This document shows positions 2,544 to 30,600 of a stretch of 64,000 nucleotides of DNA, one piece after another. The stretch is from Alphaproteobacteria bacterium (GTDB lineage: Bacteria > Pseudomonadota > Alphaproteobacteria > UBA9219 > RGZA01), in NCBI GenBank assembly GCA_033762625.1, contig JANRLI010000016.1, positions 77,660 to 141,659 on the forward strand. The letters are read 5' to 3'. Both the position numbers and the translations under genes were made by a program. A model generated the notes under the pieces. The model had not been told where the DNA came from. It saw nothing but the letters and a program-made list of their open reading frames with translations, and did not search any database. Position 1 is the first letter of the stretch. Every line of letters begins with the position of its first letter.

Positions 2544-3128
2544 TCACGGTTTATATAAATCGGGATAGGTCAAACGCAGTTTTGCCAGCTTTGGCAGATC
2601 ATGCATGATGATGTAAGGGCTCGTCATGTTCCGCGGCAGATAATTCTGATGATAGTCTTCTGCCGGATAAAACGCCTTTAACGATTCAACCTTCGTCACA
2701 ATCTTATCCGAATATCGCTTTGCTTTTGTCAGCTCGGCAATTTTATCCTTCACGGCCTTTTCCTGTTCGGGATTGCTGGTAAATACCTGTGACCGATATT
2801 GCGTGCCACGATCTGGCCCTTGGAAATTCAATTGCGTCGGGTCATGCGCCACATTGAAATACACATCCAGCAATTGGTTTAACGATACCACCTTGGGGTC
2901 ATAGGTAATTTCAACGCTTTCGGCGTGCCCTGTATTCCCATCACTGACCTGTTCATAATTCGCTGTCTCCGCGCTACCGCCCGCATAACCAGATACTGCT
3001 TTGGAAACGCCCTTCACATGTTCAAATACAGCTTCCACACCCCAGAAACAGCCACCCGCCACGACAAGTGTTTCGGCATGCGCTGGCACAGCGAGTAACA
3101 GCGAAAAAATCAATAAAAGTTTTTTCAT
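2544..3128 (-). CDS. msrA: Peptide methionine-S-sulfoxide reductase MsrA, Sec signal peptide (periplasmic copy)
   Basis: MKKLLLIFSLLLAVPAHA signal peptide followed by GGCFWGVEA active-site motif, EDYHQNY C-terminal motif. Confidence 0.85.
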   Translation of the reverse strand: MKKLLLIFSLLLAVPAHAETLVVAGGCFWGVEAVFEHVKGVSKAVSGYAGGSAETANYEQVSDGNTGHAESVEITYDPKVVSLNQLLDVYFNVAHDPTQLNFQGPDRGTQYRSQVFTSNPEQEKAVKDKIAELTKAKRYSDKIVTKVESLKAFYPAEDYHQNYLPRNMTSPYIIMHDLPKLAKLRLTYPDLYKP

Positions 3129-3129
3129 A

Positions 3130-3609
3130 TTATGCCTGTTTGCTGCTGGGTTTGAAGGTCAGCACCGCGCCATTGCTGCAATAGCGTAATCCCGTCGGCT
3201 TTGGCCCGTCATCAAACACATGGCCATGGTGTCCGCCGCAGCGCGCACAATGATATTCGGTGCGTTTCATGAACATGGAGTTGTCTTGCTTTGTTGCAAT
3301 ATGACGTTCTATGGCAAAATAAAAACTGGGCCAGCCCGTGCCGCTATCGAACTTGGTATTCGATTCAAACAGCGGGTAATCACAACCAACGCAGTGAAAT
3401 GTTCCTTCGCGGTGTTCATCCACCAACTTGCTGGTAAAGGGCGCTTCCGTGCCTTCTTCGCGCAAAATGTGGAATTGCTCGGGCGTCAGAATTTTTTTCC
3501 ATTCATCCTTTGTCTTGGTCACCTCAAACGCATCCCCCGCCAGCAGTTTACCTGAACCTAAAAGCCCGATTGCAATCACGCTGCCCACCAAAAATTCCCG
3601 TCGTTTCAT
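3130..3609 (-). CDS. msrB: Peptide methionine-R-sulfoxide reductase MsrB with twin-arginine (Tat) signal peptide (periplasmic copy)
   Basis: N-terminus MKRREFLVGSVIAIGLLGSG (RRxFL Tat motif); HCVGC / [16 protein letters not shown] zinc and catalytic motifs of SelR/MsrB; 1 nt gap to msrA downstream. Confidence 0.85.
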   Translation of the reverse strand: MKRREFLVGSVIAIGLLGSGKLLAGDAFEVTKTKDEWKKILTPEQFHILREEGTEAPFTSKLVDEHREGTFHCVGCDYPLFESNTKFDSGTGWPSFYFAIERHIATKQDNSMFMKRTEYHCARCGGHHGHVFDDGPKPTGLRYCSNGAVLTFKPSSKQA

Positions 3610-3610
3610 A

Positions 3611-4114
3611 TTAGCTTACCTTCCAGTTTGGCCTGATATAATGGCACGTATAACCATTGGGGTGCTGCATCAGATAATCCTGATGGTAATCCTCAGCTAC
3701 ATAAAACTTCGTTGCGGCGGTAACTTCGGTTACAATCAGCCCCGGAAATTTCTGCGATGCGTTAAGTTCGTTGATCAACTGGCTCGCGGTTTTGCGTTGT
3801 TCCTCGCTCACATAAAAAATCGCAGAACGATAGGACGGGCCCACATCATTACCCTGACGGTTTTTGGTGGTGGGGTCATGAATTTGAAAAAAGAATTCCA
3901 GAATTTTGCGGTATGAAATCACATCGCTGTCAAAGGTAATTTCAATGGCTTCCGCATGGCCGGTGTTTTTCGATGTCACATCCTTATATGTCGGGTTTTC
4001 AAATGTGCCGCCGGTATATCCGACATCGGTATTGGTCACGCCCGGAAGCTTGCGGATTAAATCTTCCATGCCCCAGAAACAACCGCCTGCCAAAATTGCA
4101 CGTTCAACCGCCAT
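3611..4114 (-). CDS. msrA: Peptide methionine-S-sulfoxide reductase MsrA, cytoplasmic copy (start moved to internal ATG at 4114 after AGGAG RBS)
   Basis: [19 protein letters not shown]... GCFWG motif directly after start; ORF-track start at 4207 lacks RBS, internal ATG has aggag 8 nt upstream. Confidence 0.85.
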
Positions 4115-4122
4115 ATCCACTC

Positions 4123-4614
4123 CTAAAACAATTGTGCATATTCGCCGTATCCTTCTTTTTCCAAATCTTCCTTTGGAATGAACCGCAGCGAAGCTGAATT
4201 GATGCAATACCGAAGACCGGTCCCCACACTTTCCGCCCGAGCGGTTGCGCCATCTGGCGCAGAGCGAATGGCGCCTATGGGCCCGTCATCAAAGACATGG
4301 CCTAAATGGCTGTCGCCGTGACGCGAACGCACTTCAACGCGCACCATGCCATGGCTGGCATCGCGTTTTTCAACAATGTGCTGTTCGTTCAATGGCCGTG
4401 TAAAACTGGGCCAGCCCGTGCCGCTATCAAATTTATCGGTTGAAGAAAATAACGGTTCACCCGAAACCACATCCACATAAATCCCGGCGCGCTTTTCATT
4501 CCAGAACGCATTGCGAAAGGGGGGTTCGGTTCCGCAGGCCTGCGTGACATAGCGCTGGAGTTCATCCAACTTGGCCAGATTGGCAGGGTTCTTGGTGTAG
4601 GATTTTGGGCTCAT
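4123..4614 (-). CDS. msrB: Peptide methionine-R-sulfoxide reductase MsrB, cytoplasmic copy; first gene of msrB-msrA-msrB-msrA operon
   Basis: CGTEPPF...SGTGWPSF...[15 protein letters not shown] MsrB motifs; no signal peptide. Confidence 0.85.
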
Positions 4615-4683: not shown

Positions 4684-4709
4684 TTCGACGATAAAGGCCA
4701 AATGGTTAC
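4684..4709 (-). promoter_or_regulatory. ECF sigma-F-type promoter GTAACC-N16-CGAA reading on minus strand, 70 nt upstream of msrB start; overlaps the divergent sigF start codon
   Basis: Minus-strand read gtaacc-atttggcctttatcgt-cgaa; same motif and 16 nt spacing as three other sites in this island; matches published Caulobacter sigma-F motif as recalled. Confidence 0.6.
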
Positions 4710-5271
4710 CGAACTAAATAAATATGGCGAATTTGCCGAGTTGCTACGCCGTGCGAATGACGGTGACAAGGCCTGCTACCAACGCTTTCTTGAAGGGATT
4801 GCGCCATTATTGCGCCGCCAGATTGCCGCGCGCATTCCCGTTGCAGATGTGGAAGATGTATTGCAAGAGGTACTGATTTCAGTGCACAAAGCCCGCCATA
4901 CCTATGACGGGGAACGCCCGATTATGCCTTGGCTGGCTTCCATCACCCAGTTCCGGATGATTGATTATTTACGCAAACACTATATCGCCATGCGCCACCA
5001 AACCACCGATATAACGGAGGTAGAGGATATTCTGGCAGATGTAACCCAGACCCCCGCTTCGTCCGAATCCATAGATGAGCTATTGATTGACGTGCCCGAA
5101 AAGCAGAAACGAATTTTAACCCTGATGCATGTGGAAGGGTTTACGGCAAAGCAAGTTGGGCAAAAACTTAACATGTCTGAAACGGCTGTAAAAGTTGCCG
5201 CCCATCGCGCCATGAAGAAAATACGCATCCAAAAGATGCGCACTGAACAACGAAAAGTACAATCGCAATGA
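4702..5271 (+). CDS. sigF: ECF (group sigma-70 region2/region4) RNA polymerase sigma factor, SigF-like
   Basis: Region 2 (VLQEVLISVHKARHTYDGERPIMPWLASITQFRMIDYLRK) and region 4 HTH (LTLMHVEGFTAKQVGQKLNMSETAVKVAAHRAMKKIR); 4 nt overlap with downstream anti-sigma gene. Confidence 0.8.
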   Translation: MVTELNKYGEFAELLRRANDGDKACYQRFLEGIAPLLRRQIAARIPVADVEDVLQEVLISVHKARHTYDGERPIMPWLASITQFRMIDYLRKHYIAMRHQTTDITEVEDILADVTQTPASSESIDELLIDVPEKQKRILTLMHVEGFTAKQVGQKLNMSETAVKVAAHRAMKKIRIQKMRTEQRKVQSQ

Positions 5272-5927
5272 CCGGTAAAACTGACACAACCCTTAACCTT
5301 ATTGCTCAGCTCAGCGCGGCTGCCCCTGCACATAAGCGCGCCGTCAAACCGCGCCGCCTCGCCCTATACCTATTGGCAGTTTTTACGGTCTATGCGCTAG
5401 GCGCGCAGGCCATCACGGGTCTGCGCCCTGATGTGACGGCAAAGTTAACCGATATTTGGTTTTTGGCTGAAATCACCAGCCTGCTGTGCCTTGCCTTGGC
5501 TTCGGCAGCTGCGGGCATTATGCTCATGGCGCCCGATGCATTTCAAAAACCCACGCTGCTCAAACTGCCTTATATCGTATTTGCTGTAATTATGGGGTTG
5601 ATTATATCCCAATACACCATGGCAATTGATATCACGCATCCGGTGGTTGGTATCGAAACCCAAGGGCTTGAGTGCGCGCTATGCCTTGCCGGTCTTTCCG
5701 CTATTCCATCAGCACTTATGTTTGCTGTGATAAAACACGGCGCTACGGTTCATCCCTTTCAAGCGGGTGCGTTTTCAGTCTTTACCGCTGCGGGTATTGG
5801 CTGCCTTACCCTGCGCCTTGCCGAGCAAACCGATAACATGATGCATCTTGCGCTTTGGCATTATTTGCCGACATTGCTTTTTGCCATGCTGGGCGCATTC
5901 ATCGGCAAACTTGTCTTGAAATGGTAA
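5268..5927 (+). CDS. nrsF: Membrane anti-sigma factor, NrsF/DUF1109 family (negative regulator of sigma F), about 6 TM helices with loop cysteines
   Basis: ATGA start/stop overlap with ECF sigma gene; 219 aa polytopic membrane protein with several hydrophobic spans and Cys in loops, the size and architecture of Caulobacter NrsF. Confidence 0.6.
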   Translation: MTGKTDTTLNLIAQLSAAAPAHKRAVKPRRLALYLLAVFTVYALGAQAITGLRPDVTAKLTDIWFLAEITSLLCLALASAAAGIMLMAPDAFQKPTLLKLPYIVFAVIMGLIISQYTMAIDITHPVVGIETQGLECALCLAGLSAIPSALMFAVIKHGATVHPFQAGAFSVFTAAGIGCLTLRLAEQTDNMMHLALWHYLPTLLFAMLGAFIGKLVLKW

Positions 5928-5929
5928 TA

Positions 5930-5960
5930 AAAAAAGGGAGAGGCATTGCCTCTCCCTTTT
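5930..5960. terminator. Bidirectional rho-independent terminator between convergent nrsF and bufA1-like gene
   Basis: aaaaaaa-GGGAGAGGC-att-GCCTCTCCC-tttt: perfect 9 bp stem, A-run on one side and T-run on the other. Confidence 0.75.
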
Positions 5961-5980
5961 CACACGATATGACTTACTGC

Positions 5981-6238
5981 TTATTCTTTGGAAGCGCCAG
6001 CAATTTTATCGCACGCACCCTTTGGAAGATAAATCCACACATTCGGGTCAGCATCTTTTTTGGCTGAACCAGCGCAGCTATTTTTACCATCCTTCGATGC
6101 GCAATCATTCTTTCCGGCCTTAGCCACCCCATAGCATTTTTCGCGTTCAGGGGATTTACCGCCCATCTCTTCGGCATGGGACAGGTTTGCAGCCATCAAT
6201 CCGGCAAGGACAGCAGCAGCGACAAGGGTCTTTTTCAT
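5981..6238 (-). CDS. DUF2282-family (BufA1-type bufferin) secreted Cys-containing RiPP precursor; no maturase genes adjacent
   Basis: Signal peptide MKKTLVAAAVLAGLMAANLSHA then EKCYGVAKAGKNDCAS...NSCAGS...WIYLPKGACDKIAG, the DUF2282 signature with 4 Cys. Confidence 0.7.
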   Translation of the reverse strand: MKKTLVAAAVLAGLMAANLSHAEEMGGKSPEREKCYGVAKAGKNDCASKDGKNSCAGSAKKDADPNVWIYLPKGACDKIAGASKE

Positions 6239-6319
6239 GATTTACTCCATAAGGTTAGGCAATAGATGGTAAGGCGGGAAGCCCGAGGATAGCCCAAAAA
6301 ACTGGGCTTTGCTCACTCA

Positions 6320-6345
6320 TTCGCAACCTAATGCACTTTGGTTAC
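6320..6345 (-). promoter_or_regulatory. Sigma-F-type promoter GTAACC-N16-CGAA on minus strand, ~80 nt upstream of DUF2282 gene
   Basis: Minus-strand read gtaacc-aaagtgcattaggttg-cgaa. Confidence 0.6.
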
Positions 6346-6385
6346 ATATGGAACAATTTAATAACCGGGGACTCATTTCCTACTT

Positions 6386-6411
6386 GTAACCACTTTTCAA
6401 ATGGCTGCGAA
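6386..6411 (+). promoter_or_regulatory. Sigma-F-type promoter GTAACC-N16-CGAA, 70 nt upstream of the 104 aa Cys/His-rich peptide gene
   Basis: gtaacc-acttttcaaatggctg-cgaa on plus strand. Confidence 0.6.
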
Positions 6412-6481
6412 TAAGGTGATATGGCGTCTCAATGCCACACCACCTGTGGCATGATTTAACATTCCATCCGGAGAAACCCTT

Positions 6482-6796
6482 ATGAAGACTTCAAAAAAAC
6501 TTGCTGCTGCTGCGCTTGCTGGCGCAATGGCCGTTATGACCACTGCTGCATTTGCTGGTGATGATTTCCCATCCTTGTACCCACAAGGCTACAAAGGAAA
6601 TGGCTCTTCCTACTCGGCAGAAAAAGCTTCCTGCAAAGGCGCTGGTTCATGCAAGAGCGGTGCAGGTTGCAACGCAGAAAAATCATGCGCAGCTGCAAAG
6701 CCAAAGCATCACAAGTCACACAAGAAAGCAGCTCCTGCCGCAGCACCTGCGCCAGCAGCAGCGATGAAGCCAGCTGAAAAGCCAGCCAAGCACTAA
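6482..6796 (+). CDS. Secreted Cys-rich peptide (4 Cys in SCKGAGSCKSGAGCNAEKSC) with His/Lys-rich and Ala/Pro-rich C-terminal tail; 6Cys-bufferin-like variant, stand-alone
   Basis: Signal peptide MKTSKKLAAAALAGAMAVMTTAAFA; CKG..SCK..GC spacing like BUF_6Cys half-repeat; tail KPKHHKSHKKAAPAAAPAPAAAMKPAEKPAKH; own promoter and own terminator. Confidence 0.55.
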   Translation: MKTSKKLAAAALAGAMAVMTTAAFAGDDFPSLYPQGYKGNGSSYSAEKASCKGAGSCKSGAGCNAEKSCAAAKPKHHKSHKKAAPAAAPAPAAAMKPAEKPAKH

Positions 6797-6829
6797 TTCG
6801 ATACGTCTTAGGCTTGTTAACAATTGAAA

Positions 6830-6859
6830 GTGGAGGCAGCAATGCCTCCACTTTTTTTT
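6830..6859 (+). terminator. Rho-independent terminator after 104 aa peptide gene
   Basis: GTGGAGGCAGC-aa-TGCCTCCAC followed by tttttttt. Confidence 0.75.
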
Positions 6860-6873
6860 ATGATAAATGGCAT

Positions 6874-6899
6874 GTAACCATCCATTGCAACACTGCGAA
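6874..6899 (+). promoter_or_regulatory. Sigma-F-type promoter GTAACC-N16-CGAA, 64 nt upstream of 6-Cys precursor gene
   Basis: gtaacc-atccattgcaacactg-cgaa on plus strand. Confidence 0.6.
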
Positions 6900-6963
6900 T
6901 ACACAGACATGCCACGCGGATTATCTTGCATGCGCATTCAACACTTAACATCTGGAGAATATA

Positions 6964-7221
6964 ATGTCTGGTCATTCAAAGAAACTTGCTGTCGCTGCAC
7001 TTGCCGGCCTTCTCACCATGGGCTTTTCAGTCGCCCCAGGCCAAGCGCACGCAACCACTGACAATGCGGCAGCGTCAGATACCCAAATCGAAAAGCATGC
7101 CTGCAAGGGACAAAATTCCTGCAAAGGCAATGGCGGCTGCAAAACCGAACGTAACGCCTGCAAGGGACAAAATGCCTGCAAGGGACTTGGCGGCTGCGCT
7201 ACCGACGGCAGCAAGAAATAA
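6964..7221 (+). CDS. BUF_6Cys-type (BufA2-like) bufferin precursor peptide, signal peptide plus two CKGQN.CKG.GGC repeats
   Basis: MSGHSKKLAVAALAGLLTMGFSVAPGQAHA then ACKGQNSCKGNGGCKTERNACKGQNACKGLGGCATDG (6 Cys); RBS ggagaa upstream. Confidence 0.7.
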   Translation: MSGHSKKLAVAALAGLLTMGFSVAPGQAHATTDNAAASDTQIEKHACKGQNSCKGNGGCKTERNACKGQNACKGLGGCATDGSKK

Positions 7222-7275
7222 TAATTCGATCTAGGTGACCCATTCATCCGCATAATACATGATGAAGGGCACAAA

Positions 7276-7304
7276 CCGGCGGTGGCAACGCCGCCGGTTT
7301 TTTT
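7276..7304 (+). terminator. Intra-operon hairpin/attenuator between precursor gene and maturase gene
   Basis: CCGGCGG-tggcaac-GCCGCCGG followed by ttttttt, then maturase ATG at 7318. Confidence 0.6.
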
Positions 7305-7317
7305 ATATGGTAGCGGC

Positions 7318-9000
7318 ATGTCCAACCCGTCTTCATCACCTGTTCCGTATCTTGGTTTTGGTCTTGGCCTGCGCATTCCGCATTACGCGCATATTCTGGA
7401 AACGCGCCCTGCGGTGGACTGGTTTGAAATCATCTCCGAAAATTTTATGGATACGGATGGCAGGCCAAAACGCAATCTGGCCAAATTCCGCACGCTTTAC
7501 CCCATCGTCATGCACGGCGTTGCCATGTCGATTGGCACTGCCGATCCGCTCAATTCGGAATATATGCGCAAGCTAAAAGCGCTGAAGAATGAACTGAACC
7601 CTGCATGGATATCCGACCATTTATGCTGGACGGGCATTGCGCACAAAACCACCCACGACTTGTTACCCGTCCCCTATACCGAGGAAGCGCTCAAACACAT
7701 CACGCAGCGCATCAAGGACGTACAGGATTTTCTGGAATGTCCAATTGCGCTGGAAAATCCATCCACTTACCTTGAATTCAAATCATCGCAAATGCCGGAG
7801 GCCGAATTTATCGCGCGCATGGCAACGGATTCCGGCTGCCATTTGCTGCTTGATGTGAACAATGTCTATGTAACCTGCTATAACCACCGCCTTGATGCGA
7901 AAGCATATATCGACGCACTACCCCTAAACCATGTGGCGCAGATCCATTTATCGGGCCACAGCAATATGGGCACCCATATTATCGATACGCATGACGACCA
8001 TGTGGTTGACGATGTATGGGCGCTTTACAAATACGTGATGCACAAGGCGGCGCGCCCCATCAACACCATGATTGAATGGGACGACAATATCCCCGAATTC
8101 GGCGTTGTGTTTGCCGAACTTGAAAAAGCAAAAGCCGCTGCCAAGGATGCGCAGAATTACGCCCCGCTGCCGGATTTGGCTGCGCCGCATGCCGCCTACC
8201 GCGCCAATCATGTGACGGGACTGGCACATTCCCAAACGCACATGCAGGACGCCATATTAAACGGCGCCGATGATGAACCAGCCGCGTGGATTAAAGAAAA
8301 AGAAAACTTCAGCGCCAGCGACCAGCTGGATGTCTATATCAATGGCTACCGCTACCGCCTTTATAACGTCACATCAGAAGATTATCCGGTTCTAAAATAC
8401 GCATTAGGCACAGATACCTTTGATACAATGCTTATGGATTGCATCAACAAAATCCCCGCAACCCATTTTAACATTGCGCGCTATTCCATTCATGTTCCGG
8501 AATTTCTGGCAAGCCACGAAACCGCAACACCCTTTGCACTTGAAATTGCGCAGCTGGAATCAGCAATCGCGCAATTAATGGATGCGCCCGAAACACCCCC
8601 CCTCACGCCCCAGCATTTAAGCCATCTCACCCCCGAAGCATTGATGGAAAGCACCCTTGCGCCGCGCAAAGCCTTGCAGCTTTTTGCCTTCAGCTATCCC
8701 GTTAATGATTATTTTCAGGCCGTCAAAAATGATCAGTCTCCACCGCGCCCTGAAATGCAGAACAGCTTTCTTGCGGTGTACCGCCACGAGGATGATGTCT
8801 GGCGCTTGCCACTGGAAGAGCACGAATATCATTTGCTTCGCAACATCTTTAGCGGGTTGACGATTGGCGATGCGCTGGAAAAAACCCAGAACGACATGGC
8901 CCTTGATGATGAAGCATTGCCTTTGCAACTAACCCACTGGTTTGCGCGGTGGATGCGTAACGGTTTGCTCGCATCTTACGAAGATAACCATATCCACTAA
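7318..9000 (+). CDS. Fused MNIO (DUF692, MbnB/BufB-like multinuclear non-heme iron oxidase) - DUF2063 (BufC/MbnC-like partner) protein; start reassigned to ATG after the hairpin (ORF-track start 7282 lies inside the terminator stem)
   Basis: N-half GFGLGLRIPHYAHI...DWFEIISENFMD...HGVAMSIGTADPL...ISDHLCW...LENPSTYLEF...DVNNVYV = DUF692 TIM-barrel motifs; C-half ...DVYINGYRYRLYNV... DUF2063 signature (R.DVYRNN-like); single 561 aa ORF. Confidence 0.75.
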   Translation: MSNPSSSPVPYLGFGLGLRIPHYAHILETRPAVDWFEIISENFMDTDGRPKRNLAKFRTLYPIVMHGVAMSIGTADPLNSEYMRKLKALKNELNPAWISDHLCWTGIAHKTTHDLLPVPYTEEALKHITQRIKDVQDFLECPIALENPSTYLEFKSSQMPEAEFIARMATDSGCHLLLDVNNVYVTCYNHRLDAKAYIDALPLNHVAQIHLSGHSNMGTHIIDTHDDHVVDDVWALYKYVMHKAARPINTMIEWDDNIPEFGVVFAELEKAKAAAKDAQNYAPLPDLAAPHAAYRANHVTGLAHSQTHMQDAILNGADDEPAAWIKEKENFSASDQLDVYINGYRYRLYNVTSEDYPVLKYALGTDTFDTMLMDCINKIPATHFNIARYSIHVPEFLASHETATPFALEIAQLESAIAQLMDAPETPPLTPQHLSHLTPEALMESTLAPRKALQLFAFSYPVNDYFQAVKNDQSPPRPEMQNSFLAVYRHEDDVWRLPLEEHEYHLLRNIFSGLTIGDALEKTQNDMALDDEALPLQLTHWFARWMRNGLLASYEDNHIH

Positions 9001-9014
9001 CCAAAGGACCTTTT

Positions 9015-9440
9015 ATGAACAAGGCTATACTATTCTACACGCAGCGGGTTTTGCCTGCATTGAATAATCTTTCATCCTTGCCGGTACTCGGCCTGCGGCT
9101 ATGGATTGCAGATGTTTTTTTCCAGTCGGGCCACACCAAATTACTGGATTGGCAAGGCACGGTTGCACTGTTTGCCGATGAATATAAGGTTCCGGTTTTA
9201 CCACCGGAAATTGCGGCATCACTTGGCACCGCAACGGAACTTGTTGCACCTGTCTTGCTCGCCATCGGACTAGGTGGCCGTTTTGCAGCCTGCGCTATGC
9301 TTTTCATGACCGGCGTGATCGAATTCACCTATATGCATTTTGATGTGCATGTCATCTGGGCGTTAACCCTTGCCCTGATTATCCTGCAAGGGCCTGGAAA
9401 ATTGTCGTTGGATTACCTGTTAAGAAAGCGTTTTGGCTAG
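9015..9440 (+). CDS. DoxX-family small membrane protein (BufD-like)
   Basis: 141 aa, 4 predicted TM spans, position immediately after MNIO/DUF2063 gene as in buf operons. Confidence 0.65.
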   Translation: MNKAILFYTQRVLPALNNLSSLPVLGLRLWIADVFFQSGHTKLLDWQGTVALFADEYKVPVLPPEIAASLGTATELVAPVLLAIGLGGRFAACAMLFMTGVIEFTYMHFDVHVIWALTLALIILQGPGKLSLDYLLRKRFG

Positions 9441-9600
9441 GTTTTATGACCCAAATGTACAAATCCTGAGGGCACTTCCCCTTTAATATTATTATCGTTT
9501 TACTTTCGAAACAGGCGTGCTTCTATATGCCCAGCAGGACACGCTCCGCTGTGTGCGGCCTGCATAGCGCTCAAGCCCTATTTTTCGAAAGGTGTATTTC

Positions 9601-10374
9601 ATGCGTCTTCTTGCATTAGCTGTTGTTTTATTTTTCGCGCAGCCAGCGTTATCCGCGCAGATTCAATTTTTCCCGCCGCAAGGCCCGTGCAATGCCGATA
9701 ACCCGATTTTGGCATGGAACGGAAATGGCAGCACCTATTGCACCCGTTTTCCAACCGCCGCTATTCCTGATTGCGGTGATGGCGAATTCCTTACCAAGAA
9801 AAACGGCAATCTTGCTTGCGTGAAAGTTTCCACCGGCGCTGTCTCATCCTCAACGCCTGCTGCGCCAACCGCGCCAACCACCACGACTTCATCCGGCAAC
9901 ACCACAACACCAACGCCTGCTTATAATTCAAACGGCACACCAACTGGCGCAGCGCCAAGCGTTGCAGCAAGCAATGGCAAAACCCAAACAACACCGGTAA
10001 CCATACCAAATCCGGTACAGCGCACAGGTAACAATGCCTGCCCCGACATTACCATTCCGGTTTGCGCTTCTGATTCCGTGCTCGTAAATTACGGGCTTGA
10101 TTTCAATGGCTGCCAGACATCCCCGCAATGCAAATATATGGGGTCAACCGCAGCAGCGCAGGCAGCTTACGCCAGCTATGCCAATGGCGGGTTATCGAAT
10201 AACAGCGTCGCCAGCAGCAACGGTTATGGCTACTACGACCCATACGCCAGCTATTATTCGGGATCGTCCTATTACACAACTCCAACCTATGTGGATGAAG
10301 TTTACGTCGAACCCGAGCCAGTGTATTACGAAGAACAGCCTAGCTATGCTTCTGAGCCTTATTATGAAGAATAA
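9601..10374 (+). CDS. Secreted hypothetical protein, Cys-containing N-domain then Ser/Thr/Pro-rich linker and Tyr-rich acidic C-terminus
   Basis: Signal peptide MRLLALAVVLFFAQPALSA; low-complexity TPAAPTAPTTTTSSGNTTTPTP; C-terminal YYDPYASYYSGSSYYTTPTYVDEVYVEPEPVYYEE; ATG 9601 preferred over GTG 9592 (RBS aaagg spacing). Confidence 0.5.
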   Translation: MRLLALAVVLFFAQPALSAQIQFFPPQGPCNADNPILAWNGNGSTYCTRFPTAAIPDCGDGEFLTKKNGNLACVKVSTGAVSSSTPAAPTAPTTTTSSGNTTTPTPAYNSNGTPTGAAPSVAASNGKTQTTPVTIPNPVQRTGNNACPDITIPVCASDSVLVNYGLDFNGCQTSPQCKYMGSTAAAQAAYASYANGGLSNNSVASSNGYGYYDPYASYYSGSSYYTTPTYVDEVYVEPEPVYYEEQPSYASEPYYEE

Positions 10375-10376
10375 GC

Positions 10377-12758
10377 TTAGAACGTAAACTTCAAACCTGC
10401 TGCAAAGGTTTGGTCAAAGCGGTTACCAATCGGCGCGCCAACATCATAGGTTGCAAACGCGCTGAATGTTTCATCCAGCGTCACGTCAAAGCCCATGCCA
10501 AGCGTAAGGGTGTGGCGTGCAGCGGAAACACCCTGCAAGCTTGCAGCCACCCCGATAATGGTTGCCTGCGTATTATTTGATGCGTCAAACACATCATAGC
10601 TGTATTTCACGCGCGCATTGGGTATGAATGCATATTCGCCAATCTTTTTAGCAGGTGCGGTGAAATTCAATCCCGTATAAAGGCGCAGCAAATTGTTCGC
10701 ACGCGAAGCAACGCTGATATTCGAAATGCCAGCTCCGCTTTCGCTAAATGCATCTTCATAGACATAGGCGTAATTGGCGCCTACACGCGGGGTAATACCA
10801 AATCCGTTCAGCTTCATACGCTTTGATACATGCAATCCTGTGGAAAGTTCATGCGCGGCATGATTGCTATTGGCGGCAATGGCTGGCGCAATATAACGCG
10901 CATTATCAATATCGTGATGCGCATAACCCATCTGGCCATCGAGCGCGATATCATCCCACACCTTGCTGCCATACAAAGCAAAACGCACAGTGTTGGCTTC
11001 ACCTTCGCTTCTGGTCGCGGCATATCCCGTCAGGCCCGTATGCTCATATCCGCCTGCTGCACCAAAGCGAAGACCTTTTTCAATTTTCCTATCCACACCA
11101 AACATAAATCCGCCGGTTTGCGTTTCATATCCTGCGGCGGAACTATTACTGGATACTGAACCCAAATTGCCTATTGCCTTGAACCAGCCGTTATTGCGTT
11201 TCATTACTGCTGGCAATGCCTTAGCCAGTGCGTTCATGCCTTGAATATTTTCAGAATGCGTTACAGTCGTATCACGCAAAGATGTAAAGGTGAGATCACT
11301 GCCCGCATCGCTGCTTGAGCCTGTATCACCCAAATGGTCAAACATCACATCGCTTGCGCGCGCACCTGAATCAAATGATGTACTGGTGGTCGTAGTCAGA
11401 CTGCTGGTAGCAGGAAGCTTGCTGGCATCTGGAACCGTTAGACTAATTGTAACATCGGTTGGGTTGTACATCACATTGCCAAACGTAAAACCCGTCGGCG
11501 CACTCGTTACCACGCTTGTAAATTCACCTGTAATGCTTCCTGCTTTGATGACTGTGTATTTAGATTGTGGATTATCGCTATTTAGTAAATTTAAAATCAA
11601 CCGTCCACCAAGTATTGCATTCCCCATAACCGTTAGCGCAGGCGCTGCATCGGTAAGACCGACTATCAATATAGATTGCGGCGGTGTGGGCGGTGGCGTT
11701 GGTTGGTAAATAGAGATATTTAATGTGAGTGATTTTACCGTTTGATGAAATCCCCCAAGATCAAGTGTTGAGTCTTTAGTAACATACACATCCGAGTTGG
11801 GGCTTAAGGTATTTTCTGCGCCCGCCAGTAATGCTCCGTTACCATACAGTATTTGATTAGCTTGCGGGTCAGCAGCGTAGTTTCCCGTAGCAATATATGT
11901 TGGACCGGAATAGCTGTTAGCTCCATGAAGTGTTGTTGTGGTTCCAAGAATATTTACATTAACGGCACCGCCAATCTGATTAATGGTTCCACCTACTGAA
12001 GTAATAATCCACGGACCATTGAGAATGCCATTTTGTACGGTACCGCCAAACAAACGTACAGGACCCGAGCTGTGCGTAGTGCCGCCATAATCAACAATAC
12101 CGCCACTATAAACTACCGAGCTGTAAGAAATCCAAGACGCCAGATTAGCAAGATTAAGCGTGCCGCCATTAACAGTTGCCTCGCCAGTAACTACACCCAC
12201 CAAATTGGTTGTGCCCGAGTTTACATTTAAGTTGAGGCCATAATTGGTAGAGATGTTTTCAATTGTACCGCCTGTTGAATTAACTTGCGGAAAAAAATAA
12301 ATAGAGTACCCAAACGGATCTACAAGCAATCCATTTCGAAGTGTGCCGCCATTAAGATGGATTAGATTAATTGCTTCGCTGCGCCCATCAAAATCAAGCG
12401 TTGCACCTGTACTAATAGTGGTGACTGACGTTCGACTAAATACAAAATTAGCACCTAATTTCAGTATACCATGATTCACATTCGTATCACCCGTATATGT
12501 ATTGGCACCTGATAGCGTCAGGGCACCAGAACCCGTCTTGGTAATTGCTGTACCACTTCCTGTAATCGCACCACTTTGTGTCGCTTCATCGAAATTGTTG
12601 ACCTGTAATGTCTCCGTAGTTGTAATCGGGGTTGCTCTGTTTTGTCCGTTAGTATAAACGATGGTCGCCGATGCAGGTACAGCGATGCCGCATAATAATG
12701 CGGCGCTTAATACCAATAATATGGAAGAACGATGGAACGATGTGCGCATGAAAACCAA
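10377..12758 (-). CDS. Autotransporter (type Va) adhesin-like protein with signal peptide, beta-helical passenger and C-terminal translocator barrel
   Basis: Signal peptide; Gly/Thr/Asn-rich passenger; C-terminal barrel region with alternating hydrophobic residues ending AAGLKFTF (terminal Phe). Confidence 0.75.
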   Translation of the reverse strand: MVFMRTSFHRSSILLVLSAALLCGIAVPASATIVYTNGQNRATPITTTETLQVNNFDEATQSGAITGSGTAITKTGSGALTLSGANTYTGDTNVNHGILKLGANFVFSRTSVTTISTGATLDFDGRSEAINLIHLNGGTLRNGLLVDPFGYSIYFFPQVNSTGGTIENISTNYGLNLNVNSGTTNLVGVVTGEATVNGGTLNLANLASWISYSSVVYSGGIVDYGGTTHSSGPVRLFGGTVQNGILNGPWIITSVGGTINQIGGAVNVNILGTTTTLHGANSYSGPTYIATGNYAADPQANQILYGNGALLAGAENTLSPNSDVYVTKDSTLDLGGFHQTVKSLTLNISIYQPTPPPTPPQSILIVGLTDAAPALTVMGNAILGGRLILNLLNSDNPQSKYTVIKAGSITGEFTSVVTSAPTGFTFGNVMYNPTDVTISLTVPDASKLPATSSLTTTTSTSFDSGARASDVMFDHLGDTGSSSDAGSDLTFTSLRDTTVTHSENIQGMNALAKALPAVMKRNNGWFKAIGNLGSVSSNSSAAGYETQTGGFMFGVDRKIEKGLRFGAAGGYEHTGLTGYAATRSEGEANTVRFALYGSKVWDDIALDGQMGYAHHDIDNARYIAPAIAANSNHAAHELSTGLHVSKRMKLNGFGITPRVGANYAYVYEDAFSESGAGISNISVASRANNLLRLYTGLNFTAPAKKIGEYAFIPNARVKYSYDVFDASNNTQATIIGVAASLQGVSAARHTLTLGMGFDVTLDETFSAFATYDVGAPIGNRFDQTFAAGLKFTF

Positions 12759-12834
12759 ATGAACAAGCTGGTTTCAGCAGCTTACCCAAAGATACGCTTT
12801 TCATGCAATCCTATTAAAATGTCACTTTTTAATG

Positions 12835-13254
12835 CTATTTCAAAAGCGTCTGAATTTTCTTGAAGCGTTCCATTTGAACCGTCTGGCCAAGATTGCGAGC
12901 TTTTTCCTTATCGCCTTCTTGCGCGGCGGGGATCATCTCGCCATCACGGGTCTGCACAAACTCGGCCCAGACTGACTTGAATTGCAGCAGTCTCTGCTTG
13001 GTTTCCTCTGGTGTTTTATCATCGTTGATCATGGTATCGGTACGCATATCCACTTCAATGGTTGATGCGCTAATCTCGCTGAGCAGCGTTGAACGGACAT
13101 TTTCGTCATCGGTTGACAAAAAGCCTGATACTTTGGCCCGCGAATTTTGAACCAGTTCAAGAATATCCGCCGTGGTCCCTTCCGCCAGCGCCGCAAAAGG
13201 GCTGGCAACGCACAACAGAAAACCGGCAAAAGCCAAAGCAAATTTGTTTTTCAT
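12835..13254 (-). CDS. Small periplasmic hypothetical protein (signal peptide), between the two autotransporter genes
   Basis: MKNKFALAFAGFLLCVASPFAALA signal peptide; charged helical remainder; no recognisable family. Confidence 0.45.
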   Translation of the reverse strand: MKNKFALAFAGFLLCVASPFAALAEGTTADILELVQNSRAKVSGFLSTDDENVRSTLLSEISASTIEVDMRTDTMINDDKTPEETKQRLLQFKSVWAEFVQTRDGEMIPAAQEGDKEKARNLGQTVQMERFKKIQTLLK

Positions 13255-13265
13255 GTATTCTCCTA

Positions 13266-16200
13266 TTACCAGCGATACTTCATACCGCCGAACACACCGT
13301 GGGTGGTTTCGTTGTTGCGGAAGCGGCCACTATATTTCCCGAATACCGAGAAATCGTTATTAAGTCTTAGCTGCATGCCTGCGCCGGCCTGCAATGCGCT
13401 TGGCTCGATATTGGTGCCATCCACCTTGAAGCGTGCGGTTGTGCCATCAAAGGTTTGTGTCGCATTCGCTTCGGGGCGGTATGCATCATACAGATAGGCT
13501 GCCGTCAGCTCGGGAATAAGCATCGAACCATCTGCCCTGTCGATATCAAAGCGCTTGGCCACATGCACTTGAAGGGTATTGCGCAACGCATGGGTGCTTT
13601 CGCTATCCACCGCAAGGTTGGCAGCATTCGCGCCCGTTTCAACAAACGCATCCTGATTATTGTAAAGGTAGGATACGGTATCAAAGATGCCGAGTTGAAC
13701 ATCGCCATCATCCGCCTTATAGCCGAGCGTACCCGATGCGCTGAAGGTCTGGCCTTCGGGTGAACCCTTGGCAGTTCCGGTGAATGTGCCAACGCGGATA
13801 TCGCGTTTGGTATCGCCCTTGTCAAAGCCGATACCTACCGCGCCGCCAACATAAATATTGCTATCCAGATTCTTCTGGCCATAAACGCCAAGCTGATAGC
13901 TGTTCAAGGATGCAGTATTGTTGTTCTGCTTCAGCTCCAATTCGTTATTGCCATATCCGAAGCCGATACGCAGCAGCGTGTCGCGTTCAGGCTTGAATTC
14001 CAGACCGACCATACCGCCAACCTGTGTTCCCTTAATGTCGCTGACATTGCTGTTTCCGGTCAGGGTTGCGAACTTGCCATACGCACAACCCCACGCCGCA
14101 ACATTCTGGCGCATGAAATTACGTTTGAGCTGAACCTGTTTGCGCTCGCCCTGATTAACCCGTTGGCTATCGCGCGGCAAGATAAGCGGCATTTGCTGAT
14201 AGCGCTGTTCCTTGCGTTCATAATATGGCGGTGGTTCTTGCTGCACAGGCGGCATGGATGCGTATTGTTGCGGCTGCACCTGTGGTACCACTTGTGGCAC
14301 AACTTGCGGCTGCATTTGTGGTTGCTGCATCACTTGCTGCGGCACGTATTGCTGCTGCATATATTGTTGTGGCTGCTGCGGCACGTATTGTGGCTGTACC
14401 TGTGGTGCCACTTGCGGCACCACTTGCGCCTGCTGTGTCATGACCTGTACCGGTTGCTGCGGCACAGGAATGTTGGTTTGCGAATACAAATTCTGACGCG
14501 GTGCGCCGCCATAAGGCGTGTTCATATTCGATTGCGCATAATGCTGGTAGGACGGCATCATCTGCGGGGTAGGCATTGGGCCAGGCATATAACCCGATGA
14601 TTGAACCACCATGTAATTTACAGCCGGCGGCGCAGCTTGCGCGACCATGCCTTGCGGCGCATAGATTTGTGAATATAATCCCAGCGGTCTATATCCGCTC
14701 TGAACCTGTGGCATGGCTTGCATTACGGGTTGCGGCGCAGGGATATAGCCATTTGGCATTCCATTATTGATGCCTGAACGTGCATGCATCAGTGCCTTGT
14801 AATTATCCGGCGCATAATCCATCGCAGTCAAGCCAATGGGCCGTGCCAGCATACCGCGGCGGGTTTCATAAGCAATCGGTGTATAGCGCGAATTGGGCAT
14901 AACCGTGCGCGTGGGTTGCTGCAATTGCGGCGCTACGTAATCGCTACCATCGGCGGTATCGTAATCGTAATTATACATCGTATCGCAATTACCGCTGCCG
15001 GGATTGGACAAGATTTCATCAAAGGTGAAATGGTTTTCACGCCATCCCTGCCCGATATCGGCATTCACCTGACCGGATAATGTTTCAAGCGCAGCCGCTT
15101 GACCCGTTGGCCCAACAGCACTTAATGCGTTTAACAAGGTATCCATTGAACTGCCATTCGCGGTTGTTTGCTGAATACCATCCAGCGCGCGGCCCGTTGC
15201 GGCCTGATTTTTGGTGGCGCCGGGCGCATTACCAAATAATTCAGCCTGCACAATTTTCATCTGGGTGGCGGTTGGGCTGTACAATGTTTGCAAGGCAAGC
15301 AGCGGGTTCGATGAAGCGGCAATCTCCGCATCATTTGACGCATTTACAATATTATCCGCGCCAATCGTCGCGCCGGATGATGTTGTGGTAAAGCGGCCCG
15401 TGCCGCTACCTGCTGGGCTTGAAATAATCGTATAGGTCGTGCCGCGCACATAGCGTGATGACGGCGTAAGCGGCTTGTAATGGATTTTTCCATCCAGCGA
15501 TGCAGGTGATCCCGTCACAATCAACTGGTCATGCACCGTATCGCTAAACTCCACTTCAAACGTACCGCCTGAATTTTGCGTAAATCCGGCAACGGTCAAT
15601 GTGCCGGGGCTATCGCCGGGGGCAACAGTACCGTTATTGACAATCTGGCCGGTGAACGTCCCAATACCCTTTAAGCCCGCGCCGGAATTTACAGTCACGG
15701 TGCTGCTGGCAACGCTGCCATCATTTTGCAAAGTGGATCCGCTGATAATGGTCGTTGTACCCGTATAGGTATTATTGCCGGTAACGCGCCATGTGCCGTT
15801 ACCTGTTACGATCAAGCCGCCGCCGGTTGGTGATCCATCGCCCACGCTGCCGGTAAAGGTGTTGGTACCGTTTTGTGTAATCGTACCGCCATCCAGCAAG
15901 ATGCTGCCCGACCCGCTTAAATTCGTAAGCGTCTGGCTGGTGGAGTTAACATCCAACACGCCATTAATCTCAACATCCGAACTGGTTGCAATCGCATCAT
16001 TCACAGTAAGGCTAAGGGTTGAACCCGAACCAATCGTCGTTGTGCCGGTATAGGTATTGACGCCCGATAACGTCCATGTGCCAGTACCGGTGGTTGCCAC
16101 ATTACCTGCGCCGGAAATCACGCCGCTAAAGGTGCCGGTACCGTTTTCGGTCAACGTATGGCCACTATCCGTCACAATACTTCCCGAACCTGAAAGGTTA

Positions 16201-27604: not shown

Positions 27605-30600
27605 ATGACCGATTTTCGTTTGAGATCACTGCCAAAAACTGAATTCGCCCGTATGTTGCGCACGGGCAAAAAGGCATTGTGCTGTCTCGTGTCGTTTGCA
27701 TTCTTTGCCATGCAGACAATGCCATTGCTCGCCAATCCGGTTAATGGAACGGTAAGTGCGGGCAGCGCCAATATCAGCTCTGCTGGAAATACCCTCACAG
27801 TCACCCAAACAACCGATAAAGCCGTCATCGACTGGCGCGGCTTTGATATCGCGAAGGGTGAAACCACGCGCTTTGTTCAGCCATCCTCTTCGTCCATGAC
27901 ATTGAACCGCGTGAGCAGTAACGCGCCGAGCTTCATCGACGGCAATCTGACTGCGAATGGTAATCTGGTTGTTGTAAATCCGAATGGCGTGTGGTTCGGA
28001 CCCAATGCACGCGTCGATGTCAACGGCCTCATCGCCAGTACGGCGAATATCAGCAATAACGCGTTCATGAACAATACCGGCATCCTAAATTTCGATGAAG
28101 CCGGAAACCCTGATGCAGCGATTATAAATGATGGCCTTATCACCGCCAAAGATGCAGGACTTGTCGGGCTTGTTGCACCAAATGTCATCAATCGTGGCAT
28201 CATTTATGCTCGCCTTGGCCGTGTAGCACTCGCATCCGGCGATACGGCGACGGTGGATTTATACGGCGATGATCTGATCAAGGTTGCGGTTTCGGACAAA
28301 GTCAAATCACAACTCGTCAGCAATAGCGGTGTGATTGCTGCCCCTGGCGGAACCATCGCGCTGACCGCCGCCGCCGGAAAAGACATCGTCAACAGTTTGA
28401 TAACCGTGCATGGCGAACTGGCTGCGCCCAGCATCCGCGAACATAATGGCAAGATTATCATCGCAGCCCAAGGCAGCAACAAGACAACCAAACAAGGCCA
28501 TAGCACTGTCCTCGTCTCTGGCATTCTCGACGCATCGGGCCGCAATGCAAGTGAACATGGCGGCAGCATTCAGGTAACGGGTGATAATATCGGCTTATTG
28601 GCTGGCACCCGCATCGATGCATCGGGCAGCGATGGATTATCCGGAACAACACTTGGCAAAGCAATTTCTTCCATGCGCATCGGTGCAGCCGGCGGGGATA
28701 TCCGCATCGGCGGTGATTATCTGGGCGGCGGTCATACACCCACCGCGCTGAACCTTTACGTCGATAAGGATGTGTTGGTGTTGAATGATGCCCTGAATAG
28801 CGGCGATGCAGGCCGAACCATCTTCTGGTCGGATGGCACGACACAATTCTACGGCAATGTCTATGCGCGTGCACTGGGCGGCAAAGGCATTCATGCCACC
28901 ACATGGAATGCGATTGCGGGCGGCAATGCCGGTGATGGCGGCTTCATCGAAACATCCGGCCACGGACATCTGGACGCTGGCGGCTATGTTGATCTCACCA
29001 GCAGCAACGGTTCACGGGGCACCTATTTCCTTGACCCGACCAACATCACCATCTACGGGAACTTCGCACCGAACTACGCAACGGTCATCACAGGTTCAAC
29101 CGGCGCGCTTTCCGCCAGCTTGAAACTATGGGTGGATTCAAGCGATACCGCCAATGTCAATCTCACCTACAGCGCACTGACCACAGCAGGCGCGAATAGC
29201 TGTGCAAGTTCATGCCTAACCGCGAACGGCACATCCGGCGCAACAACCATCACCACAAGCGCTAACATCGCTTCTACACTTCAGGTCGGCCAACGCCTTC
29301 GCCTTGGCGCTGCCGGCAGCGTAACAGCCGCCTCCACGCTTGGCACAGACACCTACACCATCAGCTCCATTTCCGGCACCACTATCACATTCTCCAGCGC
29401 ACTCACCGCGACATACACAAACGCAGTGGTCTATGCCGGCTACGTATCACAAATGACTGATAAAAGCGGTCTGGGTAATAACGCGACGCAGGCAACGGCC
29501 GCGAACATGCCGCTATGGATAAGCAATGGGTTTAATTCAATCGGGACCACGAATTACTCTGGCAGCTCCTACCTCAATCTCCCGAACCTCATGTCAGGCG
29601 CAACAGCGGGCAGCGGTTTTTTCAGCGCGATCAATGCGGCCGATCCGCCGGGTACCGGAAGCCAGACAGGTATGCCTTTTGGTAATTGGGGCACCGGCAT
29701 TCAATCCCACTATGTCTGGACGGACGGCGTTGTATACGATTCATTCGGCTCCAATCTCAGAAAGACCGCTGCAAATCCTGTTCCGGCATTGACGACAGCC
29801 AATGTGTATGGGGTCATCTCTGCGGCGAATGACTGGCGCGACTATATCAACGGACAAGCTCTTTTCTCGACCACGACGAACACCGTCGCATGGGGCACAA
29901 CGCCGACGATTGGTAATAATGTTGGCTCGTATTTCTTTACAGGAAAACTTGGTGATGTTTTTGCCTATAACAAAGCTGTATCCGCGAACGAACAGACGCT
30001 GTTGAACCAGTACATATCCGGAAAATGGAATGTTGCACTTCTTCCTCCGGGTAGTGGCGCAACTGAAGTTGCGCAGGCAACCGCAAGCGTGCAGAAAGGC
30101 GATGCGGTTGATGGGTACAGCGTCTTTACAACCCGTTATTTACAACGCTTATCGCAATCCGCAAATATCAGCTTGCAATCGTCGAATAACATCACCCTTG
30201 ATTTTCAGGGCGATAATATGAATTTCACGACGGCAGGTCGCACCCTCACCCTGACAGCAGGAAATCAGATTACAACAGCATCTACCGGAACCATCACGAC
30301 CAATGCGGGGGCGATCACCTTGAATGCCACCAACGGCATTTTAATCAATAATGCCTTCACGATTAATTCTGCAAATGGCGCGGTCAATATCAATAACGCT
30401 GTTACGCTTGCCGCGAATTTGAGTGTGACATCCGGTTCAGGCACACTAACCTTCGCCAGCACCATCGATGGCGCAGGTGGTTTGACCACAAGCTCTACCA
30501 ATGGTGCAACAATCTTCAACGGGGCTGTTGGTGGCACAACGCCGATTACCAGCTATACCGGAACAGGCCGCGACCTTACCATCAATCAAAACATCACCAG

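Follow-up and report, generated by a model that had tools for sequence, protein, structure and literature searches.

A natural BufB-BufC fusion and three secreted Cys-containing peptides in a SigF-type bufferin locus of an alphaproteobacterium

The 64-kb stretch of the Alphaproteobacteria bacterium contig JANRLI010000016.1 that was analyzed here (hereafter, the window) contains, at its positions 5981-9440, a compact gene cluster resembling those of the bufferins (captophorins), which are among the largest families of RiPPs, peptides made by ribosomes and modified after translation. The initial annotation had described three distinct secreted Cys peptides, a single fused MNIO-DUF2063 maturase and a DoxX protein there, and all of these open reading frames (ORFs) were indeed found: on the minus strand and convergent with nrsF, a DUF2282/BufA1-type precursor of 85 amino acids (aa) with a signal peptide and four conserved Cys (5981-6238), and on the plus strand, a 104-aa secreted peptide (6482-6796), a BufA2-like (Cys-Lys class) 6-Cys precursor of 85 aa (6964-7221), a natural BufB-BufC fusion (7318-9000) and a DoxX membrane protein of the type seen in Buf1 (DUF2282) clusters (9015-9440). 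These are preceded on the plus strand by genes for a SigF-type extracytoplasmic function (ECF) sigma factor (4702-5271; Pfam Sigma70_r2, r4_2 and ECF, and NCBIfam TIGR02937 above cutoff) and an NrsF anti-sigma factor (5268-5927; PF06532, 106 bits against a cutoff of 27), the two together being the pair by which a Caulobacter-type SigF/NrsF regulon is recognized in sequence. Signal peptides of the locus proteins were assigned by eye, and the related loci with which the window was compared are designated by L-numbers (L001, etc.).

The fused maturase and its adjacent precursor

The maturase consists of an MNIO TIM barrel (residues ~1-276; PF05114, 348 bits; NCBIfam MNIO_BufB, 354 bits against a cutoff of 310) followed by a DUF2063 and RiPP recognition element (RRE)-type partner (residues ~300-560; PF09836 for the DUF2063/HvfC part, 36 bits against a cutoff of 27), and the predicted model of the fused protein is a single compact two-domain unit matching 3BWW and 3DEE. 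The annotated ATG at 7318 is likely its start, as the alternative GTG at 7282 falls within a terminator hairpin. Its catalytic motif EWDDNIP aligns to ERDFNFP of 3BWW, and the site concerned is reported to be Phe in the MNIOs of Lys-Cys (EGKCG) peptides and Asp in those of Cys-Lys peptides (PMC13097082), with which the enzyme studied here shares the Asp-Asp dyad after the metal-ligand Glu. The dyad was also considered as a predictor of the substrate class and discarded as such: EWDD versus ERDF sets the enzyme apart from the Lys-Cys/EGKCG one (3BWW), but the DUF2282-associated relatives are Asp-Asp as well.

The fusion itself is not special to this locus but common, and defines a large clade. 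In a protein search, at least 120 clusters of fused proteins (~560 aa, both Pfam domains, at least 63% identity) were retrieved, and a genome scan, which used exact peptide words from the query and which divergent MNIOs would thus escape, returned 70 loci from Rickettsiales- and Rhodospirillales-like metagenome-assembled genomes, cultured Methylophilus (55-57% identity), carriers of the fusion including M. methylotrophus DSM 46235 and M. glucosoxydans, and others, with the fusion present in about 55 genome loci (~50 non-redundant); all of the fused proteins formed one clade in a neighbor-joining tree. No description of natural BufB-BufC fusions was found in the literature that could be searched. 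An artificial HvfB-HvfC fusion from the oxazolin system of H. influenzae has the same domain order, the MNIO being N-terminal and its DUF2063 partner C-terminal, and is highly active, more so than the co-expressed pair (bioRxiv 10.64898/2026.07.17.739211); that fusion, however, acts on EGKCG (Lys-Cys) repeats, whereas the one described here occurs in nature, is widespread and has Cys-Lys peptides as its partners.

Several loci of this clade deserve mention in their own right. In L056 (6944-8697; 78% identity), a frameshift, a secondary split or an error in sequencing has left MNIO and DUF2063 as two overlapping ORFs. Contig CAZFKP010000001.1 carries two fused-maturase clusters ~12 kb apart (L014 and L023), one with a BufA2-like peptide only and the other with DUF2282 and BufA2-like genes in tandem. 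L024 (5600-9165) comprises a fused maturase and a window-type DoxX with a 252-aa hydrolase-like ORF upstream and no Cys-rich precursor nearby; its substrates must be encoded elsewhere.

Directly upstream of the maturase lies the BufA2-like gene, the product of which has a signal peptide and six Cys (C-x5-C-x5-C-x6-C-x5-C-x5-C) within two ACKGQNxCKGxGGC repeats. Its match to the NCBIfam BufA2 model (NF050166; E=1.7e-13) scores 50.6 bits, under the equivalog cutoff of 60, and seven BufA2-like relatives from the fused clade score 30-56 bits, all likewise under that cutoff; the BufA2-like peptides of this clade, judged by these scores, are thus best regarded as a sister subfamily and not as strict BufA2. 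A Cys-Lys peptide gene ends 0-130 nucleotides (nt) before the MNIO in nearly all of the ~50 non-redundant fused loci, L001 and L024 being without one, and the precursors of the clade are either of the 6-Cys form 'EKHACKGxNSCKGxGGCKT..NACKGxNxCKGxGGC' or 4-Cys variants of it. In the nearest non-fused MNIO and DUF2063 pairs (L058-L063), it is a DUF2282 gene that occupies the precursor position. Gene order and sequence point to the BufA2-like Cys-Lys peptide encoded immediately upstream as the predicted cognate substrate of the fused enzyme.

The DUF2282 gene, its DoxX and the 104-aa peptide

The DUF2282 peptide (PF10048, E=1.3e-23, 83 bits against a cutoff of 22) shows the Cys pattern C..NDC..NSC..C, and the ratios of nonsynonymous to synonymous substitution rates (dN/dS) of its gene against relatives, 0.05-0.2, indicate purifying selection. 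The gene is monocistronic and divergent, with its own promoter and terminator, and does not share an operon with an MNIO/DUF2063 pair of its own, as Buf1 precursors typically, though not universally, do (PMC12452194). It was correctly noted initially that it has no maturase of its own within the locus; the statement that only one MNIO is present holds for the 64-kb window, in which phmmer over all ORFs found one MNIO, without a second, and one DUF2282, the search having covered the window and not the genome as a whole. A divergent DUF2282 gene is seen in eight non-redundant loci (the window, L001, L004, L008, L016, L017, L020 and L040) and a tandem one in L023, and it is not a chance neighbor of the maturase. 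As iterated hidden Markov models for DUF2282 and BufA2-like peptides merged via their common signal peptide, first-round phmmer and core motifs were used instead for telling the two apart. L010 (14366-14644) and L023 (14761-15036) each have a second, divergent DUF2282-like gene with three Cys, in which NSC reads KHSC, at ~7.5 kb downstream of their fused maturase, the one in L010 being followed by a membrane adenylate/guanylate-cyclase-like ORF and not by an MNIO.

The DoxX protein of the window (PF07681, 58.2 bits against a cutoff of 23.6), a frequent but not universal component of bufferin clusters, represents one of two sequence types. Proteins of the window type (type I) share 60-77% identity among themselves in L024 and the fused loci that bear DUF2282, and the window type is 51-54% identical to DoxX of the split DUF2282-type loci L058, L061 and L063, whereas DoxX proteins of the fused loci without DUF2282 are just 25-27% identical to that of the window, even though their maturases are ~64% identical. 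The type of DoxX thus goes with whether a DUF2282 gene is present, and does not follow the tree of the MNIOs: in 100 neighbor-joining bootstraps of the maturase tree, the DUF2282/type-I loci were never monophyletic, and the window, L001, L004 and L008 grouped with 100% support. An apparent association of DUF2282 with the mere presence or absence of DoxX (Fisher p=2e-4) was rejected as an artefact of phmmer having been seeded with the window DoxX and having missed the second, divergent type; Pfam finds DoxX downstream of most fused maturases. Outside the window, DoxX genes are exemplified by L025:8662-9135 and L042:8642-9094, among others, and the two types follow near-identical fused maturases.

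The third peptide, of 104 aa, has four Cys (C51, C57, C63 and C69; C-x5-C-x5-C-x5-C), a KPKHHKSHKK block and an Ala/Pro tail. Even at E<=10, neither Pfam nor NCBIfam yielded a match to it, and it lacks the six or twelve Cys of BufA2. Seven distinct homologues were found by a word-index search and a HMMER profile scan of 1.84 billion representatives, the latter returning, when distant relatives were sought, only three matches; there is therefore no wider family. That the ORF is a real gene is evident: all indels among the five closest homologues are in frame, pairwise dN/dS is 0.10-0.25 and comparable to that of the neighboring genes, and all of the homologues occupy one syntenic slot, with the divergent DUF2282 gene on one side and the BufA2-like gene on the other. 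The latter also appears to be its origin. BLASTP of the 104-aa peptide against the neighboring BufA2-like peptide gave E=1e-5 over 'EKASCKGAGSCKSGAGC' against 'EKHACKGQNSCKGNGGC', and phmmer against BufA2-like peptides gave E-values down to 1.8e-8; KLAxAALAG is common to the signal peptides of both, as is an EK(A/H)xC anchor further on, and the NPYPQGY(K/R) of the 104-aa family recurs in the BufA2-like peptide of L078.

What the family keeps is the signal peptide, NPYPQGY, EKASC, the KHH-rich block and the Ala/Pro tail, whereas the Cys number in the seven homologues is 4, 4, 3, 3, 3, 3 and 1, with C51 alone being invariant. Poor Cys conservation had been named at the outset as speaking against this peptide, and it was encountered in part, one Cys being invariant in all seven. 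The proposal of a new precursor type likewise stands in that the models of DUF2282 and BufA2 both fail to match the peptide and falls in that it is a diverged BufA2-like duplicate and not an independent class; on the alignments, it is a lineage-specific diverged tandem paralogue of the BufA2-like precursor, in which the signal peptide and the first triad or tetrad of Cys are retained and the C-terminal Cys half has been replaced by the His/Lys block and Ala/Pro tail, and would be better described as a truncated, neofunctionalising Buf2 paralogue with a weakly constrained Cys motif. In L001, represented by the independent assemblies L001, L002 and L003, the BufA2-like gene, sigF-nrsF and DoxX are all absent, and a 98-aa peptide gene with a hairpin, coding for the sole plus-strand peptide there, directly precedes an intact maturase (dN/dS 0.11).

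SigF-type promoters and terminators

With the sigmaF consensus GTAACC-N16-CGAA taken from Caulobacter (PMC3511200), where both buf1 and buf2 are SigF-controlled (PMC11626156), six exact boxes were found in the window against 0.18 expected, a number reached in 0/100 shuffles, and all six are confined to its 3.7-6.9 kb, four of them lying 58-75 nt 5' of the start codons of msrB, the DUF2282 gene, the 104-aa gene and the BufA2-like gene. The box of the DUF2282 gene (6320-6345, minus strand) has its GGTTAC element kept in L001, L004, L077 and L078; that of the 104-aa gene (6386-6411, plus strand) is exact in L004 and has one mismatch (GGAA at -10) in L001; and that of the bufA2-like/bufBC/doxX operon (6874-6899, plus strand) has a counterpart 60-150 nt 5' of the BufA2-like gene in many related loci. 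In L004, where the BufA2-like gene lacks such a box, transcription of the operon would start at the 99-aa peptide gene's promoter. In L001 (7805-8003), a relative without local sigF-nrsF, the divergent boxes both read GTAACC-N16-GGAA, with the same -10 C-to-G change on both strands, which hints at either co-variation with a different sigma factor or decay.

Three hairpins complement these boxes: a bidirectional intrinsic terminator shared by nrsF and the DUF2282 gene (5932-5960; -21.9 kcal/mol, z=-7.7), an intrinsic terminator with a U-run 3' of the 104-aa gene (6826-6855, plus strand; -21.7 kcal/mol, z=-6.2), which is kept in L004 and preserved in L001 by compensatory stem changes, and a hairpin with a U-run in the gap between the BufA2-like precursor and the enzyme (7273-7300, plus strand; -23.0 kcal/mol, z=-4.4; kept in L004). 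The last is likely an attenuator that sets the precursor:enzyme ratio, the enzyme and DoxX being read through it. A GGAG ribosome-binding site is found at each peptide gene, and the separate boxes and hairpins suggest that the three peptides constitute three separate SigF-type transcription units.

The remaining boxes belong to the regulatory and msr genes. Within sigF, an internal sigmaF-like box with an N17 spacer (5041-5067, plus strand) lies ~230 nt 5' of nrsF in the codons of the sigma2-sigma4 linker; GTAACC-N17-CGAA is exact in 15 of the 26 related sigF genes, with one change in eight more, and although the residue before the Glu varies, its third base is always C, and the Val is always encoded by GTA. 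The bases being invariant despite the residue change, there is therefore constraint at the DNA level, and the box is probably a promoter for nrsF alone, which would provide negative feedback. The msr block on the minus strand (2544-4614) comprises four methionine-sulfoxide reductase genes, called from their ORFs and from PMSR and SelR Pfam matches of the syntenic genes in L001 and L004: msrA with a Sec signal peptide (2544-3128), msrB with a Tat-like RREFL signal (3130-3609), msrA (3611-4207) and msrB (4123-4614). The box of this operon (4684-4709, minus strand) has a -35 element that overlaps the start codon of sigF, the msr and sigF units diverging from a common 87-nt intergenic region (sigF start, 4702), and a further box within msrA (3708-3733, minus strand), 5' of the distal msrB-msrA pair, has counterparts in L004, L008 and L077.

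The kind of locus and the substrates of its enzyme

Every feature that can be examined in sequence places the locus within the bufferin/captophorin kind, as what looks like a new arrangement of a known system and not a new system. Taken as a whole, the explanation that we find rather probable is that the region is a SigF/NrsF-controlled envelope-stress island, the core of which is a bufferin RiPP cluster of the Cys-Lys/Buf2 kind. With buf2ABC of Caulobacter vibrioides (BUF_6/12Cys, Cys-Lys captophorins), it shares a Sec-signal 6-Cys CKG-repeat precursor directly 5' of an MNIO and DUF2063/RRE and, as predicted from the boxes here, SigF control, from which it differs in having B and C in one polypeptide, a DoxX gene that follows them (Caulobacter buf2 has none) and a precursor under the NCBIfam BufA2 cutoff. 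It also has an adjacent sigF-nrsF, unlike the Buf2 clusters surveyed previously, where sigma/NrsF genes were reported to accompany Buf1 and not Buf2 clusters (PMC12452194); sigF-nrsF adjoins at least 24 non-redundant Buf2-like fused loci, in which the precursor gene is often preceded by a sigmaF box.

With the Caulobacter buf1ABCD/Neisseria gonorrhoeae NGO1944-1948 type, on the other hand, the locus has in common the 4-Cys DUF2282 precursor, the adjacent sigF-nrsF and the msr genes in the regulon, along with a DoxX of the same sequence type as in the split DUF2282 loci; here, however, the DUF2282 gene is inverted and monocistronic, and the separate Buf1-type MNIO/DUF2063 pair is replaced by a Buf2-type precursor and a fused maturase. 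The simplest reading of the sequence would be a Buf1/Buf2 mosaic, in which a Buf2-type precursor and the fused maturase have taken the place of BufB1/BufC1 in a sigF-nrsF-bufA1-...-doxX cluster (cf. L061), and the DUF2282 gene with its Buf1-type DoxX seems best explained as a module that was left over from, or imported from, a Buf1 cluster and has no maturase of its own here. What is new in the locus is the natural B-C fusion, the mixture of Buf1 and Buf2 precursors at one maturase, the Buf1-type DoxX and the lineage-specific His/Lys-tailed paralogue.

The sequence shows the gene content, the promoters and terminators, homology, synteny and purifying selection; the chemistry and the pairing of enzyme with substrates are inferred. 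Release of SigF by NrsF would allow transcription from the GTAACC-N16-CGAA promoters of four units, namely the msrB/A genes, the DUF2282 gene, the 104-aa gene and the bufA2-like/bufBC/doxX operon, with the hairpins 3' of the two plus-strand peptide genes presumably letting peptide mRNA exceed enzyme mRNA. In the cytoplasm, the fused MNIO-DUF2063/RRE enzyme would, as its family membership suggests, oxidize the central Cys of the BufA2-like precursor to 5-thiooxazoles, and the peptides would then leave via Sec, with removal of their signal peptides, and bind copper as chelators in the periplasm. The DUF2282 peptide would probably be processed by the same enzyme, as its retention together with its DoxX in the absence of the Buf1 maturase suggests that the fused enzyme serves it too, and the 104-aa peptide would most likely be a minor extra substrate or one becoming an unmodified His/Cys metal-binding peptide. 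Modification of both in trans, as initially considered, is plausible, and the accompanying premise of one MNIO/DUF2063/DoxX set per precursor type was too strong, given that Buf1 and Buf2 precursors lie apart from any MNIO gene in sizeable proportions and that some precursor genes are arranged in tandem (PMC12452194). The full form of this proposal, in which one natural BufB-BufC fusion installs thiooxazoles on DUF2282, Cys-Lys and truncated His/Lys-tailed precursors alike, and in which the partner of DoxX would be the product of DUF2282 rather than the enzyme, is nevertheless put forward tentatively.

Quite a few observations weigh against the explanation preferred here. The only invariant Cys of the 104-aa family aligns with CysI of the BufA2-like peptides, which in Caulobacter Buf2 is unmodified and forms a disulfide with CysVI, the latter being absent in the 104-aa peptide, and one homologue (P0127) has just a single Cys, so modification of this family may be marginal or absent; the promoter boxes 5' of its homologues are also degenerate in L077 and L078. 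The Asp-Asp site, being found in DUF2282-associated relatives too, excludes the EGKCG class and cannot decide between Buf1 and Buf2, L024 demonstrates that precursor and maturase can be unlinked in the fused clade, and a dedicated Buf1 maturase could be encoded elsewhere in the genome, beyond the 64 kb of the window. Moreover, peptides with a foreign Cys context are not accepted by FonBC, which is an MNIO of a different class (PMC13097082), and therefore the processing of DUF2282 by an enzyme of the Cys-Lys type is not a given. The gene order of L001 and the promoter arrangement of L004, however, still appear to tie the 104-aa family to the maturase.

A possible, if doubtful, alternative is that the BufA2-like peptide is the only substrate, and that the DUF2282 and 104-aa peptides are unmodified SigF-induced periplasmic Cys/His peptides, direct metal binders or oxidant scavengers, analogous to MrpX of the Azospira SigF regulon, a secreted, Met-rich and sacrificial peptide (PMC4436054). 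MrpX offers a precedent for an unmodified peptide in a SigF regulon that also includes methionine-sulfoxide reductases, and it resembles the 104-aa peptide in being small, Sec-exported and of low complexity, with a SigF promoter and a position beside sigF-nrsF and methionine-sulfoxide-reducing enzymes. The 104-aa family itself, with its variable, decaying number of Cys (1-4) next to a conserved His/Lys block and Ala/Pro tail and with an invariant Cys matching the unmodified CysI of Buf2, would suit such a role, as would the fact that each extra peptide is its own transcription unit with promoter and terminator, and stand-alone Buf1 and Buf2 precursor genes are numerous (PMC12452194). The mature 104-aa peptide is, however, not Met-rich and, unlike MrpX, is homologous to a bufferin precursor and lies beside a maturase; in L001, where the BufA2-like gene is lost and the 98-aa peptide has the place of the precursor, the maturase is intact and under purifying selection; and the DUF2282 peptide, kept beside the maturase in 8-9 lineages, has the fold and the four Cys of a peptide known to be modified in Caulobacter.

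Another conceivable arrangement, which we deem unlikely, is that the DUF2282 peptide is modified by a dedicated non-fused BufB1/BufC1 pair elsewhere in the genome, the local layout reflecting a common SigF promoter region only. Genomes of relatives can have two MNIO loci or more (CAZFKP01 with L014 and L023, JAGWIK01 with L061 and L063), Caulobacter buf1 and buf2 are separate clusters, and an exact-word scan would overlook divergent MNIOs; this same scan recovered no second locus from the closest relatives (JAKFVN01, CAZMQI01 and JAYRWY01), which counts weakly against such a pair, and the Buf1 type of the DoxX by the fused enzyme suggests that the Buf1 module lives here and not elsewhere. That the 104-aa ORF might be nothing but a functionless, decaying, pseudogene-like remnant of a duplicated precursor could be argued from the loss of its second Cys half, the 6-aa indels in the Cys region and the tiny size of the family, but appears very improbable for a gene with such low dN/dS and exclusively in-frame indels, a conserved ribosome-binding site, an exact sigmaF box and a conserved terminator of its own, which is, furthermore, retained across relatives whose maturases are only 73-85% identical.

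Although the basic picture of bufferin biology is left unchanged, the locus bears on two questions: how does an MNIO pick its Cys targets, and what does DoxX do? Together with ~8 relatives, it provides natural test cases of one maturase standing between Buf1-type and Buf2-type precursors, with L001 being a natural knock-out of the Buf2-type precursor in which the enzyme has been kept. If the fused enzyme is truly shared between the precursors, the DoxX type that follows the DUF2282 gene would be a first handle on the role of DoxX. The natural B-C fusion is, moreover, a ready-made stoichiometric enzyme for biochemistry, paralleling the engineered HvfBC, and the presence of sigF-nrsF at Buf2-like clusters qualifies a published generalisation (PMC12452194).

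Just downstream of the cluster, the window encodes a 260-aa secreted protein (9592-10374, plus strand), which has Cys in its N-terminal part, a linker rich in Thr and Pro and an acidic tail rich in Tyr and Ser, for which no Pfam or NCBIfam match and no upstream sigmaF box were found, and which is kept in the same place in L001 and L008. Very large ORFs, namely an autotransporter-like one of 793 aa and two others of 1872 aa and 2376 aa, flank the island at 10377-18884 (minus strand) and 27605-34735 (plus strand).

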